Shown here one piece after another: positions 23,154 through 43,580 of a DNA stretch of 49,381 nt. The notes under the pieces are model-generated. The model ran no database searches and was not told the DNA's origin. It saw nothing but the letters and a program-made list of their open reading frames with translations. Origin of the DNA: Octopus sinensis (lineage: Eukaryota); the NCBI RefSeq assembly GCF_006345805.1, contig NW_021834341.1:1-49381 (forward strand). The letters run 5' to 3'. How positions within the stretch are numbered: position 1 is the first letter of the stretch; each line of letters begins with the position of its first letter. Made by a program: the position numbers and the translations under genes.

Positions 23154-24264
23154 TATTTACGTATGTATACATATATATATATATGTATATATTTATGTAT
23201 GTACCTATATATGCATGTGTATATATATTTACGTATGTATACATATATATATATATGCATGTATGTATATATATACATATGTATGCATATGTATGTATGT
23301 GTCTATGTGTGTGTGTGTGTGCGTATGCATAACCGAGATTATTGTATGGAGATGATATTATTGGTTACGTAATATTCAAGTAGGAAACTGCATGAAATAT
23401 GAATTTTTCTGTTTAATATGCTGCAACATGTGTCTACTCTGACAGTTATATATGTAACTCTCTGCACACAGAGTTAGTATACGAGAATTTAGGAGCATCT
23501 CTAAGCCAGTAGGAATGGGGAGACGGAGGCGAAATGCATGAAATTCTTTGCTTACAGAACAAAGACAACTATCTGACATGACAGGTTCAATCTATATAAA
23601 CTGCCAGTAGGTCTCGAGGTCAGTGTAAGCTTTATATGACGTAATGCCACGACGTGGTTTGAAGTTTGGCATCACGCATGCATAACGGCTTCTAGAATGT
23701 TCTGAAACGGTAATATGGTGACAGAGAATTGATAGAGTTGAAATATGTGGTGTTCTTGACTGGAGATGAAATGGAACCGGCTGCCATAAAAAGTTATATA
23801 TATTTCAATGGTTAAAATCTAAAGTCAGTCTCTGATTTATTAGAATTATGATCATGAAAAGAATATTTTAATTACGTTATACGAGGTAATTTGCTTTGCC
23901 TTCTTTTTCTGTCCTGAGATCACCGTCAAGGATGCCTGACCATGCTAGAAATATTGGTTTAATTCACAGAGATTTGAAGTTACAGCACCGACAACCACTT
24001 ATATCGATATGCGTCACAGGGTTTGTATAACTCGCTTAAATGAACTAAATTTTTGTACCGATTCATTCTCACCCGTCTACCATAATGTATATATATATAT
24101 ATATATATGTATATATAACTTATATATAGAGGGCATTATACATACATGCCAGAGAGCATTATACATACATGCCACACGCTAAGAGGGACAATTAGTCATT
24201 TCTACCAAAAATATTACTAATCCCACCGAATGCAATTTTTCAAAATAAGACATTTAAAAAATAT

Positions 24265-24312
24265 AGACCTGTATCACAGTGATTTCTTACTTACGTATTC
24301 ATCAGCAGGCCT
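24265..24312 (-). ncRNA. Type I hammerhead ribozyme, array A copy 1
   Basis: aggcctg CTGATGA atac gtaa gtaa GAA atcac t gtgat A caggtct; first stem II pair is an A/A mismatch. Confidence 0.8.
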
Positions 24313-24738
24313 GAATGCATCATACATAAACGACCCTGCCCCGCTTAAGCCGATCAGCTAACTGATCAACATCAACGAAGCACATGGGTGAGTTTACATA
24401 TATTACATCCTGTAAATGGCATACTTTTACGAATTGCATTTCGGGAGAGGAAAAGTTTTTTCGGAATAAAAATTTAGCAATTAAGGACAACTACTTAATA
24501 AGGAAAACTTAACAAGAAATTGTCAGGTAGATAGCGTGAAAACCTCATAAGAGAATAAATTTCGAAATATTATTTCTTATTGAACATATTAATTTATATA
24601 TAGAGGGCATTATACATACATGCCAGAGAGCATTATACATACATGCCACACGCTAAGAGGGACAATTAGTCATTTCTACCAAAAATATTACTAATCCCAC
24701 CGAATGCAATTTTTCAAAATAAGACATTTAAAAAATAT

Positions 24739-24786
24739 AGACCTGTATCACAGTGATTTCATACTTACGTATTCATCAGCAGGCCT
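24739..24786 (-). ncRNA. Type I hammerhead ribozyme, array A copy 2
   Basis: aggcctg CTGATGA ATAC gtaa GTAT GAA ATCAC t GTGAT A caggtct: 7-bp stem I, 4-bp stem II with GNRA loop, intact core, AUA cleavage triplet. Confidence 0.9.
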
Positions 24787-25214
24787 GAATGTATCATACA
24801 TAAACGACCCTGCCCCGCTTAAGCCGATCAGCTAACTGATCAACATCAACGAAGCACATGGGTGAGTTTACATATATTACATCCTGTAAATGGCATACTT
24901 TTACGAATTGCATTTCGGGAGAGGAAAAGTTTTTTCGGAATAAAAATTTAGCAATAAGGACAACTACTTAATAAGGAAAACTTAACAAGAAATTGTCAGG
25001 TAGATAGCGTGAAAACCTCATAAGAGAATAATTTCGAAAATAATTATTTCTTATTGAACATATTAATTTATATATAGAGGGCATTATACATACATGCCAG
25101 AGAGCATTATACATACATGCCACACGCGCTAAGAGGGACAATTAGTCATTTCTACCAAAAATATTACTAATCCCACCGAATGCAATTTTTCAAAATAAGA
25201 CATTTAAAAAATAT

Positions 25215-25262
25215 AGACCTGTATCACAGTGATTTCATACTTACGTATTCATCAGCAGGCCT
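25215..25262 (-). ncRNA. Type I hammerhead ribozyme, array A copy 3
   Basis: Identical to copy 2. Confidence 0.9.
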
Positions 25263-25480
25263 GAATGTATCATACATAAACGACCCTGCCCCGCTTAAGC
25301 CGATCAGCTAACTGATCAACATCAACGAAGCACATGGGTGAGTTTACATATATTACATCCTGTAAATGGCATTATATATATATATGCATATATATGTATG
25401 CATTTATGTATGTATGTATGTATGTATGCATGTATGTATGTATGTATGTATGTATGTATGTATGTATGTATGTATGTATG

Positions 25481-25516
<36 letters not shown>

Positions 25517-25693
25517 ATATATAGCCGATTTTCTTCCAGAATTAGCCAAGAAAACATTTTATCATTAATTAAAATCTTAGGGTAGCAAGAATATTCATAG
25601 AAAAATATTCATAGAAAAATTCTTAGTTGCCAGTAGTCTAGCGAGAAAGAAACAATTAGTCAATAGACTATATATTATTCAAAGAAGAATACA

Positions 25694-25942
25694 GTGTACG
25701 TTCAAACACAAAAGAGATACCCGAAGAATAGGACATCTGACTCGCTAGAAAGAGCAGTTAAAACTCCAAGCCACCAATTGTTGTAATTCCAAAAGTGATT
25801 GGAAAATAGGATTAAGGTAAATGTTTTTATTTTCCAGTCACTTTCGGAATTACAACAATTGGTGGCTTGGAGTTTTAACTGCTCTTTCTAGCGAGTCAGA
25901 TATCGTATTCTTCGGGTATCTCTTTTCTGTTTGAACGTACAC
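25694..25942. repeat. Inverted repeat, ~115-bp arms, ~19-nt spacer
   Basis: 25694-25808 is the near-perfect reverse complement of 25828-25942. Confidence 0.92.
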
Positions 25943-26171
25943 GATATATATATATATATATAATATACACGCACATATGGTCCAAAACTATAGAAAACAC
26001 AAAGAAAAGGGAAAGAACAGCAAACATAGTGTATTAGTTTAATGCCCAGGAAAATGAGCGAAGTCTGTAACGTTTTGAGCCATCATTCGGAATAATTCAG
26101 CACTGAATATATTCCGGTAAAATTTAAAATTTAGAAATAGGATAAAATCTTTATAAGTATTTATCAAGTAG

Positions 26172-26595
26172 TCAGCATGACAAACCTCATAAGGGAAAAA
26201 TTCATAATTATTCCCTTTAAATTATGAATTTTTCCCTTATGAGGTTTTTTACGCTGAATGTACACGTGTACCGAGATGCAATTCGTAAAGCCCACCTCTT
26301 ACATTGATATATAAGAGTGAACAGTTCTATGTACCGTGCAGGATACATTTAGTTTTCGTCTGGTATGTTGATTTTTTTGTTCATTTTTTACGTGTCTTGG
26401 TTATGCCTGCACTGACGATTACAAAGTGTATTTTGTGCAATAACTATGAAATCATATAGGATTTGCGGATGAATCTGTTTTTAAGAGTTCGGTTTAAGAT
26501 TTACATACCCTCGCGTTCAGTACACTGTATTCATTATGGTAGTTTTGACTTTAAGAGTCCCTCATAGCATGAGGCATTTATGTGTAGTAATACGC
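26172..26595 (+). mobile_element. Diverged single copy of the array A/B family, preceded by an inverted partial copy
   Basis: Shares ttatgaggtttt..acgct, atgcaattcgtaaa and gtccctc.tag..tgaggcatttatgtgta blocks in the same order; perfect 28-bp IR 26182-26209 / 26220-26247. Confidence 0.8.
26407..26468 (+). ncRNA. Type I hammerhead motif, diverged
   Basis: ctgca CTGACGA [29 nt with tacaaag/ttttgtg hairpin] GAA atc atatag gat T tgcgg; base of stem II irregular. Confidence 0.65.
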
Positions 26596-26609
26596 TTAAT
26601 ATAAATAGA

Positions 26610-26645
<36 letters not shown>

Positions 26646-29214: not shown

Positions 29215-30771
29215 ATATATATATACATGTAAATATATACGGACATATTTTATACACACACACACACCACACCCACATACATATACACACATACATGTTT
29301 AAATACATATATTATTTACATATTTATCAGATGCCTAAGCTTCCGTCTGTTGCCAGCAAGAGATTGCAGAAATAAATAAAATAAATATAAAAGACGAAAC
29401 TTTATTATATACACTACACATAAAACGTATTCATTCGCCATTTCGATTTATCATTCCATCAAGCAATGTGAATTCTTCGGTTTAAGTTGACATCATCAGA
29501 TGCTTTAGTAATTTGTAAGCCACCGGGGCAGAATTTAGAGCTGTAGTTGTGTGTGCCGGGAATATTATGAAGTTATAAAGCGTAGCCATCATATATAGTC
29601 GACATTAATGCTTAATAATGTCTTGTATTGATTCCTGCATTCGAAGCCATCCGCGGCATTGATTTTCGCAACGAATCGATATTATATATTACACTTAGTC
29701 GTTGAGATATATGTGTATATGTATGTATATATGTATGTATGTATATATGTATGTATGTATGTATGTATATATATATATGTATATATTTATATGTGTGTAT
29801 ATATGTATATTTACATACATACATAGAAGAGAGAGAGATGTAGAGATAGATAGATAGATAGATTAATATGTGTTTGTATGCATCGATATATGCATTTCTA
29901 TGTGACCATACATAAATATATATGCACCTGTACACACACACATATCTTGATTCATGTATGCATACGCACATATATACACACAGACTGTATTTATATCTAC
30001 GTATTTATATATGTATAAGTATCTATGTATATATATATATATATACATACATACATACGTACATACATACATATATATATGTCTGTGCGTGTGTGAACGT
30101 CTGGTTGTATTTATATGTGCTCCAGATGAATTGTTGTCGGTGATGTATCCGTGTATCGGTGTGAGTATGTAAATAAATATATAATAAGATAGCATATGAA
30201 TAAGACTACCTGTAGTGTTTACGATTCATTCGAAAAACAACATTGTTCATATACAGACATTTTCTAGTGAGATTTTCTCATATTTTTTTCATAAGGTTTT
30301 GCGCTCTAAGCGGCTAAAATTATTCTATATTCTCAGCTGGTATGGAGGCCCTCTTCGAAGCCGTTTATATATACTTTTTAAAAACTGCATTTGGGTATGA
30401 TTAGTATAATTTTGGTAGTAATGACTTTGTCCCTCTAGTGTGAGGCATTTATGTGTAATAATGCCTCTATACAATATAGATATAATTAATTTGTTCAAAA
30501 GAAAAAAAATTATTTTCGAATTCTTTTTTTTATGAGGTTTTCACGCTAGCTACCCGATAATTCTTGTTAAGATCCCTTATTAAGAGATTATCCTTAATTG
30601 TTAAACTTATTCCGAAATACTTTTCATTACCCGACATGCAGTTCGTAAAAAAGCTCGCCATTTACCGGATATATGATTTATAAACATTCCATGTGCTTGG
30701 CCGGAGTGAGCAGTTGTCTGTTCATCTTCGCTACGTAAGGTTGGTAGTTTATTTATGATGTGTTCAGAATC

Positions 30772-30829
30772 AGTTCTGCTGACGATCATTAGAGGTAAGT
30801 TGAATGTGAAATCACGGTGATACAGAACT
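30772..30829 (+). ncRNA. Type I hammerhead ribozyme, array B copy 1
   Basis: agttctg CTGACGA tcattagaggtaagttgaatgt GAA ATCAC g GTGAT A cagaact. Confidence 0.85.
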
Positions 30830-31247
30830 AAATTCATTTTTTAAATGTCTTGCTTTGAAAAACTGCATTTGGGTATGATTAGTATAATTTTGGTAGTAAT
30901 GACTTTGTCCCTCCTAGTGTGAGGCATTTATGTGTAATAATGCCCTCTATACAATATAGATATAATTAATTTGTTCAAAAGAAAAAAAATTATTTTCGAA
31001 TTCTTTCTTTTATGAGGTTTTCACGCTAGCTACCCGATAATTTCTTGTTAAGATCCCTTATAAGAGATTATCCTTAATTGTTAAACTTATTCCGAAATAC
31101 TTTTCAACCCGACATGCAGTTCGTAAAAAAGCCCGCCATTTACCGGATATGATTTATAAACATTCCATGTGCTTGGCCGGAGTGAGCAGTTGTCTGTTCG
31201 TCTTCGCTACGTAAGGTTGGTAGTTTATTTATGATGTGTTCAGAATC

Positions 31248-31305
31248 AGTTCTGCTGACGATCATTAGACGTAAGTTGAATGTGAAATCACGGTGATACA
31301 GAACT
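31248..31305 (+). ncRNA. Type I hammerhead ribozyme, array B copy 2
   Basis: agttctg CTGACGA t CATT a GAC gtaa GTT g AATG t GAA ATCAC g GTGAT A cagaact. Confidence 0.88.
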
Positions 31306-31568
31306 AAATTCATTTTTTAAATGTCTTGCTTTGAAAAACTGCATTTGGGTATGATTAGTATAATTTTGGTAGTAATGACTTTGTCCCTCCTAGTGTGAGG
31401 CATTTATGTTAATAATGCCCTCTATACAATATAGATATAATTAATTTGTTCAAAAGAAAAAAAATTATTTTCGAATTCTTTCTTTTATGAGGTTTTCACG
31501 CTAGCTACCCGATAATTTCTTGTTAAGATCCCTTATTAAGAGATTATCCTTAATTGTTAAACTTATAT

Positions 31569-35344: not shown

Positions 35345-36030
35345 AGATATCGTAATCATTTGTAGCATATTAATTATGAATTTGCATTCTCTCCTCCAGA
35401 TCTCAAGTTCAGCTATAATTTGCACCTGACAGGTCGGTATATGCGCTGTTTCTCCAATAATAATATGTATGAAACTGAAGGTATACCTTGGAAACTGGAT
35501 TTGCGAGCTCCTTATCAATGATCCATAGACGTCTCCTTTCTCTTACATTTTTCTAAACAGATTCGTCTCCAGAGAACAGTTAGTTTCCAAAACTGAAATA
35601 CCCTTTCTTTCTGGTTGCACACTAAAATATCTGACCGGTTGCGTTTTAACTTGTTGGCTATTTTAACTTTCAATTTCCACCAGTATTCTGTTAATCCATC
35701 GGTCTCAATATGGTCAATTTGCTTGTAGGTATTCCCTCTTTTCTTTTTTGTCATCCTGTTCCAGACCGTCCTGGTCTCCATATCATGCTTCATGGGGAGA
35801 CAATATCTGGATGACATTCTGTCACAGATGGCAATAATATGGTTGATGTCTTCAGTCTTGGTCTTGCAGAGCCTACATTTGTTGTCTTTCAACGCTTCCT
35901 GCCATTTATGTTGTAGGTCCTTGGTGGAGATTTTTGTTCTTGGATCACATGGATGTAGCCTTCAAAGTAGGACGGCATAATCGTGTCGGAACTTCATGCC
36001 AAGCTGTTGAAATGATCGATCGGTTTTAGC
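35345..36030 (-). pseudogene. R4/Dong-like non-LTR retrotransposon C-terminal fragment
   Basis: CRLCKTKTEDINHIIAIC zinc knuckle, KHD, then NRSDILV (PD..D-type restriction-like endonuclease remnant). Confidence 0.85.
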
Positions 36031-39778: not shown

Positions 39779-40155
39779 TTATATATATATATATATATAT
39801 TATAAAATGAGATAGGGGTTGAAAATTCAACCCACCATGGGATAATATATATCCAATATACTGCTAGATAGGTACCCAACAAGACTAATACATAGATGTT
39901 AAAAATTGCCAAACAATCAGTTCATCTATTGTATTATATGGGTAAAGGTAATAATATTACCGTAAATTAATATTACAAAATTAGAGAATGGAGAAACCTA
40001 CTTAAATCAATAAAATATCAACTATCAGATGATACCCAATCAATACTTTAATACACCATTACATATCAGTAAAGGCATTATAAAAAATATACAGTAAGAG
40101 TAAATAGACAAAGAGATATAAGTATAAAATTTCAAATATAATATGTAATTAAATC

Positions 40156-40272
40156 AATTCTGACAGCTGTTTCGGCAGTGAGGGCAGTCGTACCTCATTT
40201 AACCTATAAGCCAATAAAGGCAGGTATAAATGAGGCATTAACAAGGATGCCCCACGGCCTCTTCAGAGAATT
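40156..40272 (-). ncRNA. Type I hammerhead ribozyme in PLE pseudo-LTR
   Basis: aattct CTGAAGA ggc[80 nt]gcc GAA ACAGCTGT C agaatt; intact core, GUC triplet. Confidence 0.92.
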
Positions 40273-40607
40273 AAATTTGTTATAATCGTGAAAAATTATT
40301 TAACCATATACATATAAATATAAAAATATAAAAATGTAAAATATAAAAACTTATACATTAAACTTCATAATGCTACACTTATATAATATAATACTCATTG
40401 GTACAATAATGGAAGGTAAACAGAACAAACAGTAAACAAAATATATATCAGTGTATATATTATATTAATAAGCACCGATATTATACATATTTGGCTAATA
40501 GTTTTTAAAAAAAACTAACACATAGGGAGATGAAAAATAATAATTAAAACCATGGTTCAGTTCATAAAATTATAAAGCTATAAAAGTTAATAAAAATTAC
40601 TATTAAT

Positions 40608-40668
<61 letters not shown>

Positions 40669-41099
40669 TATACAGTTATGTTTGCACCAAATCCATCCTT
40701 TCAAGATTGAAATAACTATGAGTTAAGAAATACTGACCACTAGGTAATGATAATTTAGATTAATTCGATTGGCTATTGGTTTGAAATTTAAATCTCAAAA
40801 GAAATTATACGGTTGGTTAGTCAAGGAACGCCAATATTCACACACGCATCTACAGATCAATCGCACATACACACTAATTATATGTATACACATACCTTAT
40901 ACACATACATAACCACAAGCAACAACTAGCACATAGATAAACAAAAAGGAAGCAACTATGCTGCCATTTAGTCCTACAAAATTATAACTATGCCTCAAAT
41001 AACGAAAAAAATCCACTCATGCATTTCATAAAATATTTAATTTAAAGATAGAAAGATATTTTTAAATATCAGTATGTTACAAAATCAGATACTATTTTA

Positions 41100-42986
41100 T
41101 TAGGTAACTTAAAATTTATAACACCGGTTTGTTGCAAAGTAAACATACGGTTGTTAGATTTACCGTAAGTTTGTTATGATTCCAAGTACGCTAAGTTATA
41201 AAATATAAAATATATATTAATTTATATATTATAAATAAATCTCTTATTTACTTTTTAAGTTTTAATATGTATATTATTATTAATATTACTACTATTACCC
41301 GTAGGCTCAGATCTATTTGAGCTACCGTTCACCTTTCCGAGGTTAACATCACTTCTACATTTATTATAGGTGTTTCATCTATTCTATTTTTCTATTCTTC
41401 TGTATATTGTTTTTATCCTAAATCTATTGGTGTTGTTCCTGATAGTTCTACCTCCATAAGAGGGTTCCCCTAGGTATAAACCATATCTTACTATTGTATC
41501 CTGCTTAAGCAATGCTGCATTGTATCTATCACAATGCTTGTTAAAAATTTCCTCGTTAGAGGATAAGCTAGAAATTCTCTGACTAATGCTACGCACTAGT
41601 GCATTTTTTATTTGAGGGGGGTGATTACTTGAACGGTTAATATATATTAGGTTAGAATTAGGTTTAATATAGGGTTCATGTAAACCATTAGTAATGTTAC
41701 AATTCATCTAAATAATTAGCAGAATAATTTTCACTTTCAATGATAATGGATAGGCCGAAACTTTTAAAAAATTTATTTATTCTTTTTTTCAAAGATCTAA
41801 TCTCCTATTATGTATTCTTAACACAAAATAAGGCGTCATCCCTGTATAATCCACCTTTTAATTCAGGGAATTCCCTACTAAAGTTATCTAATAGATACAT
41901 CCCAACTAGATCAGTCACCTCCGCCGAGTCCGGCGATCCCATTGTGATATCGAACAAGTTAGGTGTGTCCTTTCTAGCCCAAAGTTTATTATCAAACTCT
42001 ATTAAAGTTTTCCTGGCTGTTAATATAACCTTAATCTCCCCCATACTTAATTTAGTGTGTTTTCTAGCAAAAATTAAGGACTTATTTAATATAATAGGGT
42101 TAATGGAAGTGTAATAATTCTGTATATCAAATTAGATGAATTTATTTCTATTATAGCTAAAGTTGTTATTGTCACAGACCTTAATGGCAGAAAACCAATC
42201 CAAAGCACCCTGAGTATTCCTCCAAAGGTTTAGTTTGATTTTACTGCGGATGGTGGGTAGATATTTATCTAGAATGAGTTTGCTTAGTCTGCCTAAGTCA
42301 GATTTAGTAGGGCAAATTAATCTGACCTGTGTGTTTCCAAGAAAGTTCTCTTTATGATCCTTTAGTGTAATTCTCGGTCTAGTTGGGGTGTAGGGTTCCG
42401 TTTTTTCTTCTAGGTAGTAGTCAAATATAATTTCCCTGATCTCCAGGTTCAGTTTTCTAAGTGTACTAGAAGGTACTACTTTGTATTTCTTGGTTATTTC
42501 TTTGTGTAGAAGATCATGATATGTAGGAATGTCAATATTGTAGACGTTGCTGGTTTTGTTAGAATGTGTTAGAATGCCGCTCTTACCTTTGAGAGTTCTA
42601 ATTAAATTTTTCAATTCCCTTTGGTGCGGGTTATATCTTAAAGGATGATTTCTAATTTTATGTTTTTTATAGTCTCCCATAGTTCTTGTTCAAATTGTCT
42701 AGATGTATATTTGGTGGGGACTTCCTAGATTTAAATGTAGTGCCTTTAATTTTAATATTTCTTCATAGGTACTTCCAATTCCATTACGGATCGTTTCCCC
42801 AGTATGTTGTTGGTTTATTTTTTTGTTATAGTTCTCATGGTGGAAAATCCTCCATCTGATCCTGTGGATGAATTCATTAATTCTATAAATTAGTTCTTTA
42901 GTGTAATGGTCTTTGGTAGGGATAGGTACATTCTTCATTGATGAATTGATCAGTATTTTCTCCATTCTTCTAGCAGTAATGATCAA
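41100..42986 (-). pseudogene. PLE reverse transcriptase (possibly Naiad-type); GIY-YIG domain largely lost
   Basis: SMKNVPIP..RIRWR; TLKDHKENF..RLICPTKSDLG; FI*FDIQNYY; FDITMGSPDSAE; GGLYRDDAL; YINRSSNHPP; CLLC remnant near 41140; stops and frameshifts. Confidence 0.9.
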
Positions 42987-43279
42987 GGAGGAACAAATAT
43001 ACTACACTAGGGTGTATTCACATGCACTATTAATATTTAAATTAATAAATGGATGCTTCTATTACACCAGTATGAGCAATTCAGGTTCCTCAAAAGATAA
43101 ATTTAGGTTATAAAATGAGATAGGGGTTGAAAATTCAACCTTGTCTATTTACTCTTACTGTATATTTTTTATAATGCCTTTACTGATATGTAATGGTGTA
43201 TTAAAGTATTGATTGGGTATCATCTGATAGTTGATGTTTTATTGATTTAAGTAGGTTTCTCCATTCTCTAATTTTGTAG

Positions 43280-43580
<301 letters not shown>

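Follow-up and report, generated by a model that had tools for sequence, protein, structure and literature searches.

A tandem array of non-coding, hammerhead-bearing units (array A) in the window, the whole stretch of 49,381 nucleotides of Octopus sinensis DNA that was analysed, is very probably a non-autonomous retrozyme mobilised by Penelope machinery. The element itself is a retrozyme, which is a known kind; the new part is its insertion ends, which expose the integration step. The way in which these ends are paired suggests that a Penelope enzyme begins copying a single RNA at two fixed points simultaneously, a step that has so far been difficult to observe. This bears on two questions left open in published work, namely which enzyme mobilises retrozymes and how the tail and the inverted repeats of Penelope elements originate.

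Array A and Its Surroundings

The preliminary description of this DNA had proposed near-identical, head-to-tail 474-bp units that contain no ORF and lie between (TA)n tracts, and each of these points was borne out. TRF placed the repeat at 24111–25372 with a period of 474, 2.7 copies and 98% matches. The unit lengths are 474 and 476 bp, and 470 of the 472 aligned bases of the units are identical. The longest stop-free frame of the array amounts to 57 aa, and TA tracts flank it on both sides (Table 1). The monomers of 476 and 474 nt that it was predicted to yield agree with the cut-to-cut spacing in the DNA. The remark that 474 nt is longer than described retrozymes had to be dropped, as the published ranges are 51–972 bp (bioRxiv 10.64898/2026.07.22.740005) and 150–450 bp (PMC7229834).

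Two further features of the window were recorded. An inverted repeat with arms of ~115 bp beside a TA run (25696–25941) is possibly a short-armed head-to-head insertion, or else a MITE. A 148-aa open frame at 35515–35961 with a weak zf-RVT match (E 0.00045, under the curated cut-off) is probably a LINE remnant.

Table 1. Positions of the retrozyme arrays, their parts and a Penelope element in the window.
Feature	Position	Strand	Remarks
(TA)n target at the 3' end of array A	24088–24128		Junction inside TA-rich microhomology
Array A, family-A retrozyme, 2.64 units, single arm	24122–25372	−	Finishes 3' at the short (S) site and 5' at +324 of the RNA, counted from the cut
Duplicated 23-bp hairpin directly before the S end	24128–24174; also 24602–24648, 25076–25122	−
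Type I hammerhead, cut 24272/24271	24265–24312	−	Core starts at 24305; A.A in place of a pair where stem II closes
"Tail" of ~120 nt that separates the S and L 3' ends	24466–24596; second copy ~24941–25070	−	Internal in array A
Hairpin finishing 11–17 nt ahead of the long (L) end	24486–24524	−	Compensatory change, A vs B
Type I hammerhead, cut 24746/24745	24739–24786	−	Core starts at 24779
Type I hammerhead, cut 25222/25221	25215–25262	−	Core starts at 25255
TA/(TATG)n tract, 5' junction of array A	25373–25523
Family C copy, older	26080–26610	+	Hammerhead near 26406–26470; S end; inverted piece
Array B, sister family, 2.5 units	30375–31568	+	72–73% identical to A; cuts 30822/3 and 31298/9; L end before (TA)n
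Broken Hydra-type Penelope element	39789–43280	−	Main arm ending at L (39789) and short inverted arm ending at S (43280), both sites being the element's own

Hammerhead Ribozymes

The three minus-strand type I hammerheads of the preliminary description were all recovered (Table 1). The stem II quoted there holds in two of the three units, whereas the unit cut at 24271/2 has an A for U at the base closing this stem. CUGANGA, GAA, the A15.1–U16.1 pair, H17 and three stems are all present. A hammerhead-like match was obtained in none of 5000 dinucleotide shuffles of the unit, and the same descriptor run across the whole window matched arrays A and B only. The Rfam Hammerhead_1 search that had been proposed as a check failed to support the call: the Rfam hammerhead families gave no match at the gathering score or at E ≤ 10, nor did any setting used return one. 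The ribozyme call therefore rests on anatomy and covariation.

The covariation extends across families A, B and C and involves stems I and III as well as the hairpin ahead of the L end. Among 299 parsed ribozymes, family A has C-G as pair 4 and G.U as pair 5 of stem I, where family B has U-A at both; the stem I of family C is different, though also paired, and its stem III is palindromic throughout. It should be noted that the conservation of stem III in A and B is partly built into the search pattern, the independent test being family C, which was found by BLAST. In circular folds, the z-score of the ribozyme strand was −7.2 (A) and −4.1 (B), and that of the other strand −3.1 and −2.5.

The usual G10.1–C11.1 pair, called highly conserved in PMC4209133, is missing from the ribozyme. 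Position 10.1–11.1 is A-U in 72 and U.U in 39 of the 117 A units, and U.U in 162/163 B-length and 17/19 C-length units. In the monomer, stem III consists of 4 bp and a 3-nt loop with a pairing probability of 0.02–0.06; when two copies were folded together, B adopted the double form and A did not. Palindromic stems III and action as a dimer are known for metazoan and Penelope hammerheads (PMC4209133). Because G10.1–C11.1 is absent, cleavage may be slow, and this absence, the weak stem III of the monomer and the lack of an Rfam score together indicate that the ribozyme may cut poorly. Eight of nine Xenopus retrozyme dimers failed to cleave (bioRxiv 10.64898/2026.07.22.740005).

Related Families in the Genome

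A pattern count over the genome gave 3227 complete hammerhead cores and 3565 half-cores, and 0 in the reversed control. In the 2.72-Gb genome, of which the window is one contig, candidate places number 1018 for unit A (39 of them scored), 852 for unit B (40) and 1317 for the older unit C (40). The window by itself already contains all three related unit types, with compensatory stem changes. Array B is a single L-ended arm with a longer stem II and compensatory changes in stem I; the family C unit measures ~492 bp elsewhere in the genome, and its relatives are 82–88% identical. The presence of three related families inside 8 kb suggests that this TA-rich region has been used repeatedly.

A Penelope RT fragment lies beside one of 31 position-ordered A/B clusters, with a TA tract in between, and none was found at the 50 best-match A/B loci, including 1.5 kb of flanks. 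Family C loci gave a weak, distant Penelope protein match in 1 of 30 cases. Constant attachment to a PLE ORF, which the preliminary description had named as the mark of something other than a retrozyme, is thus not what these loci show, the one A/B place matched by a Penelope protein being separated from it by the TA tract. For the same reason, a chimera of this array (locus L112) with the neighbouring RT fragment was ruled out. Ordinary pseudo-LTRs were also ruled out, given that no RT-endonuclease ORF flanks the arrays at the loci searched.

Several loci deserve separate mention. At 2126–4054 of L126 and 2640–3686 of L113, the units of family A arrays are irregular or longer than elsewhere, with a spacing of 583 in L113. 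L164 and L165 on contig C29 are one insertion present twice, ~255 kb apart, which is either a segmental duplication or an assembly duplicate. L006, L017 and L171 hold distinct retrozyme insertions that differ in family or orientation and occupy shared or adjoining TA tracts.

Insertion Ends and Target

For the mapping of insertion ends, 95 loci were used; L165 was dropped as the duplicate of L164, which left 33 position-ordered loci (contig C1) and 61 best matches. Counted from the ribozyme cut, the 3' ends of family A fall near +150–160 (S) or +272–280 (L), and those of family B at +134–142 (S) or +260–268 (L). The two sites are ~120 nt apart, and the cut coincides with neither. (TA)4+ then follows in 139 of the 151 anchor-classified arms. 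A hairpin stands ahead of both the S and the L site in families A, B and C, as judged for the tail hairpins from single folds and anchored hairpins, and the stem of the 23-bp hairpin before the S end is kept in all three. Meanwhile, the 5' ends are scattered: 10 of 156 lie within 10 nt of the cut versus 6.6 expected (p = 0.12).

These data bear on two points of the preliminary description. The non-integer copy number was attributed to rolling-circle reverse transcription of a circle; it does arise in copying, from a fixed internal 3' start and a scattered 5' stop, but a circle or a long linear multimer would both suffice. A genome-wide look at copy number and end permutation was proposed as a check; the copies are numerous, and their ends are not freely permuted.

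Arm lengths fit an exponential distribution with a mean of 1.0 kb (KS p = 0.10, 49 arms), and arrays of 12–15 units also occur. This distribution bears on the published model (bioRxiv 10.64898/2026.07.22.740005) in which solo Penelope pseudo-LTRs grow locally into satellites by unequal crossing-over, and in which block duplication could give the periodic variants described below. Besides the exponential lengths, the model is opposed by inverted arms that are both multi-unit and have haplotypes in common, by the lack of a parent element among ~7 sampled Penelope families and by the lack of an attached ORF, and we regard local growth of this kind as highly improbable. The mapped loci carry the hallmarks of Penelope insertion: a fixed 3' end with an optional tail, 5' truncation and head-to-head inversion. 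The earlier retrozyme reading is upheld in that array A belongs to a non-coding, hammerhead-bearing tandem element with many dispersed copies, which is unattached to a Penelope ORF and bears Penelope-type insertion marks. The best overall explanation, which we consider reasonably probable, is that array A was inserted recently and represents a non-autonomous element of Penelope type that belongs with the non-LTR retrozymes.

Head-to-Head Pairs

Among the mapped arrays, 65 adjacent head-to-head pairs were found. In 5 of them an arm was unclassifiable; the remaining 60, including 5 classed by position alone, all combined one S arm with one L arm, and neither S+S nor L+L was seen among them. Twenty of these 60 pairs come from the position-ordered sample. 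About half would be S+L under independent choice of sites. Family C was left out of this count because of its decayed ends and its complex locus L202. Among 25 single-arm loci, 3 conceal a short S arm beside the L arm and none an arm of the same type.

The longer arm is S in 29 pairs and L in 31; the lengths of the two arms show no correlation, and in 30 pairs each arm is longer than one unit. Some inverted junctions are palindromic, with overlaps of up to 124 nt, as would be left if a single priming event were followed by fold-back or self-priming and the endonuclease then cut the inverted arm back to the second site. Self-priming and endonuclease resolution have been proposed for Penelope elements (PMC3846280, PMC8557442). 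Such an origin is nevertheless very unlikely here, because S+S is never seen, the longer arm may be of either type, and the short arm of L117 matches no stretch of the long arm of which it should be a copy. We consider twin priming at two sites to be the likely origin of the pairs.

Autonomous Hydra-Type Penelope Elements

The same genome contains 6793 candidate Penelope-like RTs, some of them in open frames of 947–1124 aa. Pfam named neither Penelope protein, and the clade was therefore assigned by motifs, which by eye match those of the Hydra clade of PMC8557442. The window itself holds a copy (Table 1) that is interrupted by stops and frameshifts and has lost ~2.2 kb internally, and near-identical relatives elsewhere keep a 960-aa open frame.

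All five mapped Hydra-type copies pair S with L (four of one family, including the window copy, and one of a second). Their tails measure ~170 nt in the first family and ~115 nt in the second, and the ends of a third family are ~125 nt apart. By eye, these elements bear hammerheads of their own with a long stem II. When families A, B and C were compared with the Penelope loci of ~7 families out of the 6793 RT candidates, BLAST and local alignment gave nothing over shuffled scores. Since one strict end rule holds for dependent and autonomous elements alike in this genome, the retrozymes are tied to the Penelope machinery by mechanism and not merely by co-occurrence.

Template of Reverse Transcription

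The median difference is 0.4% for the two arms of a given insertion and 1.7% between insertions (54 pairs), which is what arms copied from a single RNA or a single source should show. Among 42 arrays of at least three units, 17 carry in every unit a substitution that is the majority base in none of the other arrays, "private" being meant relative to the 42 insertions sampled, in a family for which each query gave ~1000 candidate places. There are 28 distinct fixed haplotypes among the 42 arrays.

Some variants recur with a period of two (L167), three (L166 and the L arm of L153) or four units (L139 and partly L151). The alternation in L167 runs over six units with one column departing once, and in L139 a 5-bp deletion and a substitution mark units 4 and 8. 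Certain columns are in phase across the arms of L119, L167 and L168; in L153 the two arms do not share a phase, and L117, L152 and L159 are mosaics with no clean period. Rare alleles found in one arm (154) outnumber those in both (103), an excess that may be due to errors of assembly and to subsequent mutation. Periodic variants can also be produced by duplication of blocks after insertion or by polishing of the assembly. The private and periodic variants favour, without proving it, a rolling-circle mode in which circles of one or a few units are copied, and a circular RNA template is somewhat probable in our judgement.

The same twin priming could also take place on an uncut or slowly cut linear multimer, for which the ribozyme would be secondary and a circle unneeded. 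A non-canonical, dimer-type ribozyme, the aperiodic mosaics and the 12–15-unit arrays as possible masters are in line with this, as is the anole element, whose main substrate in vitro is unprocessed RNA (PMC11167929). We nevertheless find a linear template unlikely, given that the insertion-wide private substitutions and the 28 haplotypes come more easily from a one-unit template, that L167 alternates through six units, and that partly cut RNA should leave 5' ends at the cut, where no excess is seen. As for expression, no RNA dataset on record is listed as containing the unit. It was present in four runs that we guessed to be RNA, in low-depth contigs that in some cases cross the cut, in others include a TA junction; contigs lack information on end, strand and level, and these weigh on neither side.

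Discussion

The observations to be accounted for are the anatomy of the ribozyme, the dispersed copies, the preference for TA tracts, the 3' ends fixed at two sites and strictly paired, the scattered 5' ends and the Hydra-type parallel. From these we propose the following scheme. Arrays would be transcribed on the hammerhead strand. With its weak palindromic stem III, the ribozyme would cut mainly as a dimer inside tandem transcripts, and RNAs of 1–4 units would then be ligated into circles, as the anatomy and the known retrozymes suggest. A putative Hydra-clade Penelope RT/GIY-YIG protein would bind the 120-nt tail region between the two hairpins and nick both strands of (TA)n, in keeping with the observed target preference. 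Each nick would prime cDNA within the RNA, one at S and one at L. Both cDNAs would pass several units and stop at points as scattered as the 5' ends, after which they would be joined head to head, or one arm would be lost or never extended, as may have happened in array A.

A more specific version can be offered tentatively. In it, an asymmetric Penelope RT dimer sits on one circular retrozyme RNA, holds both ends of the 120-nt element and primes from both nicked (TA)n strands, the enzymes chasing round monomeric or 2–4-unit circles. Penelope RTs are not known to have an RNase H, the lack of which would leave the template intact for another pass. If this version is true, the Penelope tail and the head-to-head inversion are products of a single twin-primed rolling-circle event, autonomous elements included, and RNA circles of defined size can be read directly from the arrays. 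The 474-nt RNA, the (TA)n target and the copies with open frames of 960 and 947 aa in the same genome allow a single reaction to test both twin priming and rolling-circle copying.

Retrozymes have been described as circular RNAs with Penelope elements as their likely drivers (PMC7229834), and frog retrozymes as akin to pseudo-LTRs (bioRxiv 10.64898/2026.07.22.740005). In the giant squid, 235 Hammerhead_1 loci are reported, uncharacterised in that account (PMC6962438). The arrays resemble the metazoan non-LTR retrozymes of the first two sources in their tandem units, which are low in GC, do not code for protein and each contain a single type I hammerhead, in their dispersal in thousands of copies, their structured unit and the presence of Penelope elements in the same genome. 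They differ in the paired inverted arms, the two fixed 3' ends and the (TA)n targeting, which the accessible text of those sources does not describe (the word "inverted" occurs 0 times in that of PMC7229834), and also in the missing G10.1–C11.1 pair.

With Hydra-clade Penelope elements, which target (TA)n and carry hammerheads with a palindromic stem III, the arrays share these features as well as head-to-head inversions, a tail on one arm and more-than-unit copies (PMC8557442). The arrays differ from them in having no ORF and no sequence likeness to the sampled families. Their tail of ~120 nt also contrasts with the 30–40 bp reported for other Penelope clades (PMC8557442), and the tail is said to be present "optionally" on one inverted arm (PMC3846280, PMC8557442). 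Non-autonomous Chlamys elements such as MRC1 (PMC8557442) are likewise non-coding Penelope dependants with multicopy head-to-tail insertions, but mostly have no hammerheads, and the 3' ends of these dependants resemble those of autonomous families.

The closest biochemical parallel is Poseidon of the green anole, studied in vitro (PMC11167929). Two internal RT start sites define its tail, cutting and extension take place on both DNA strands, and a dimer has been predicted; its target is AT-rich, its copies end elsewhere than at the ribozyme cut, and it inserts with no need for cleavage. Its start site is said to be unmatched to the cleaved DNA, whereas the junctions of the arrays lie in TA-rich microhomology, and no pairing of site with strand was seen there, whereas the two sites of the arrays are strictly paired. 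Within the mostly open-access main texts consulted, we found no strict one-short-one-long rule, no Penelope twin priming and no retrozyme ends of this kind.

Long asparagine-rich stretches were also observed between the RT and the endonuclease in three of the octopus Penelope ORFs (L142, L146 and L149), and comparable stretches have been noted in rotifer Penelope elements (PMC3846280).
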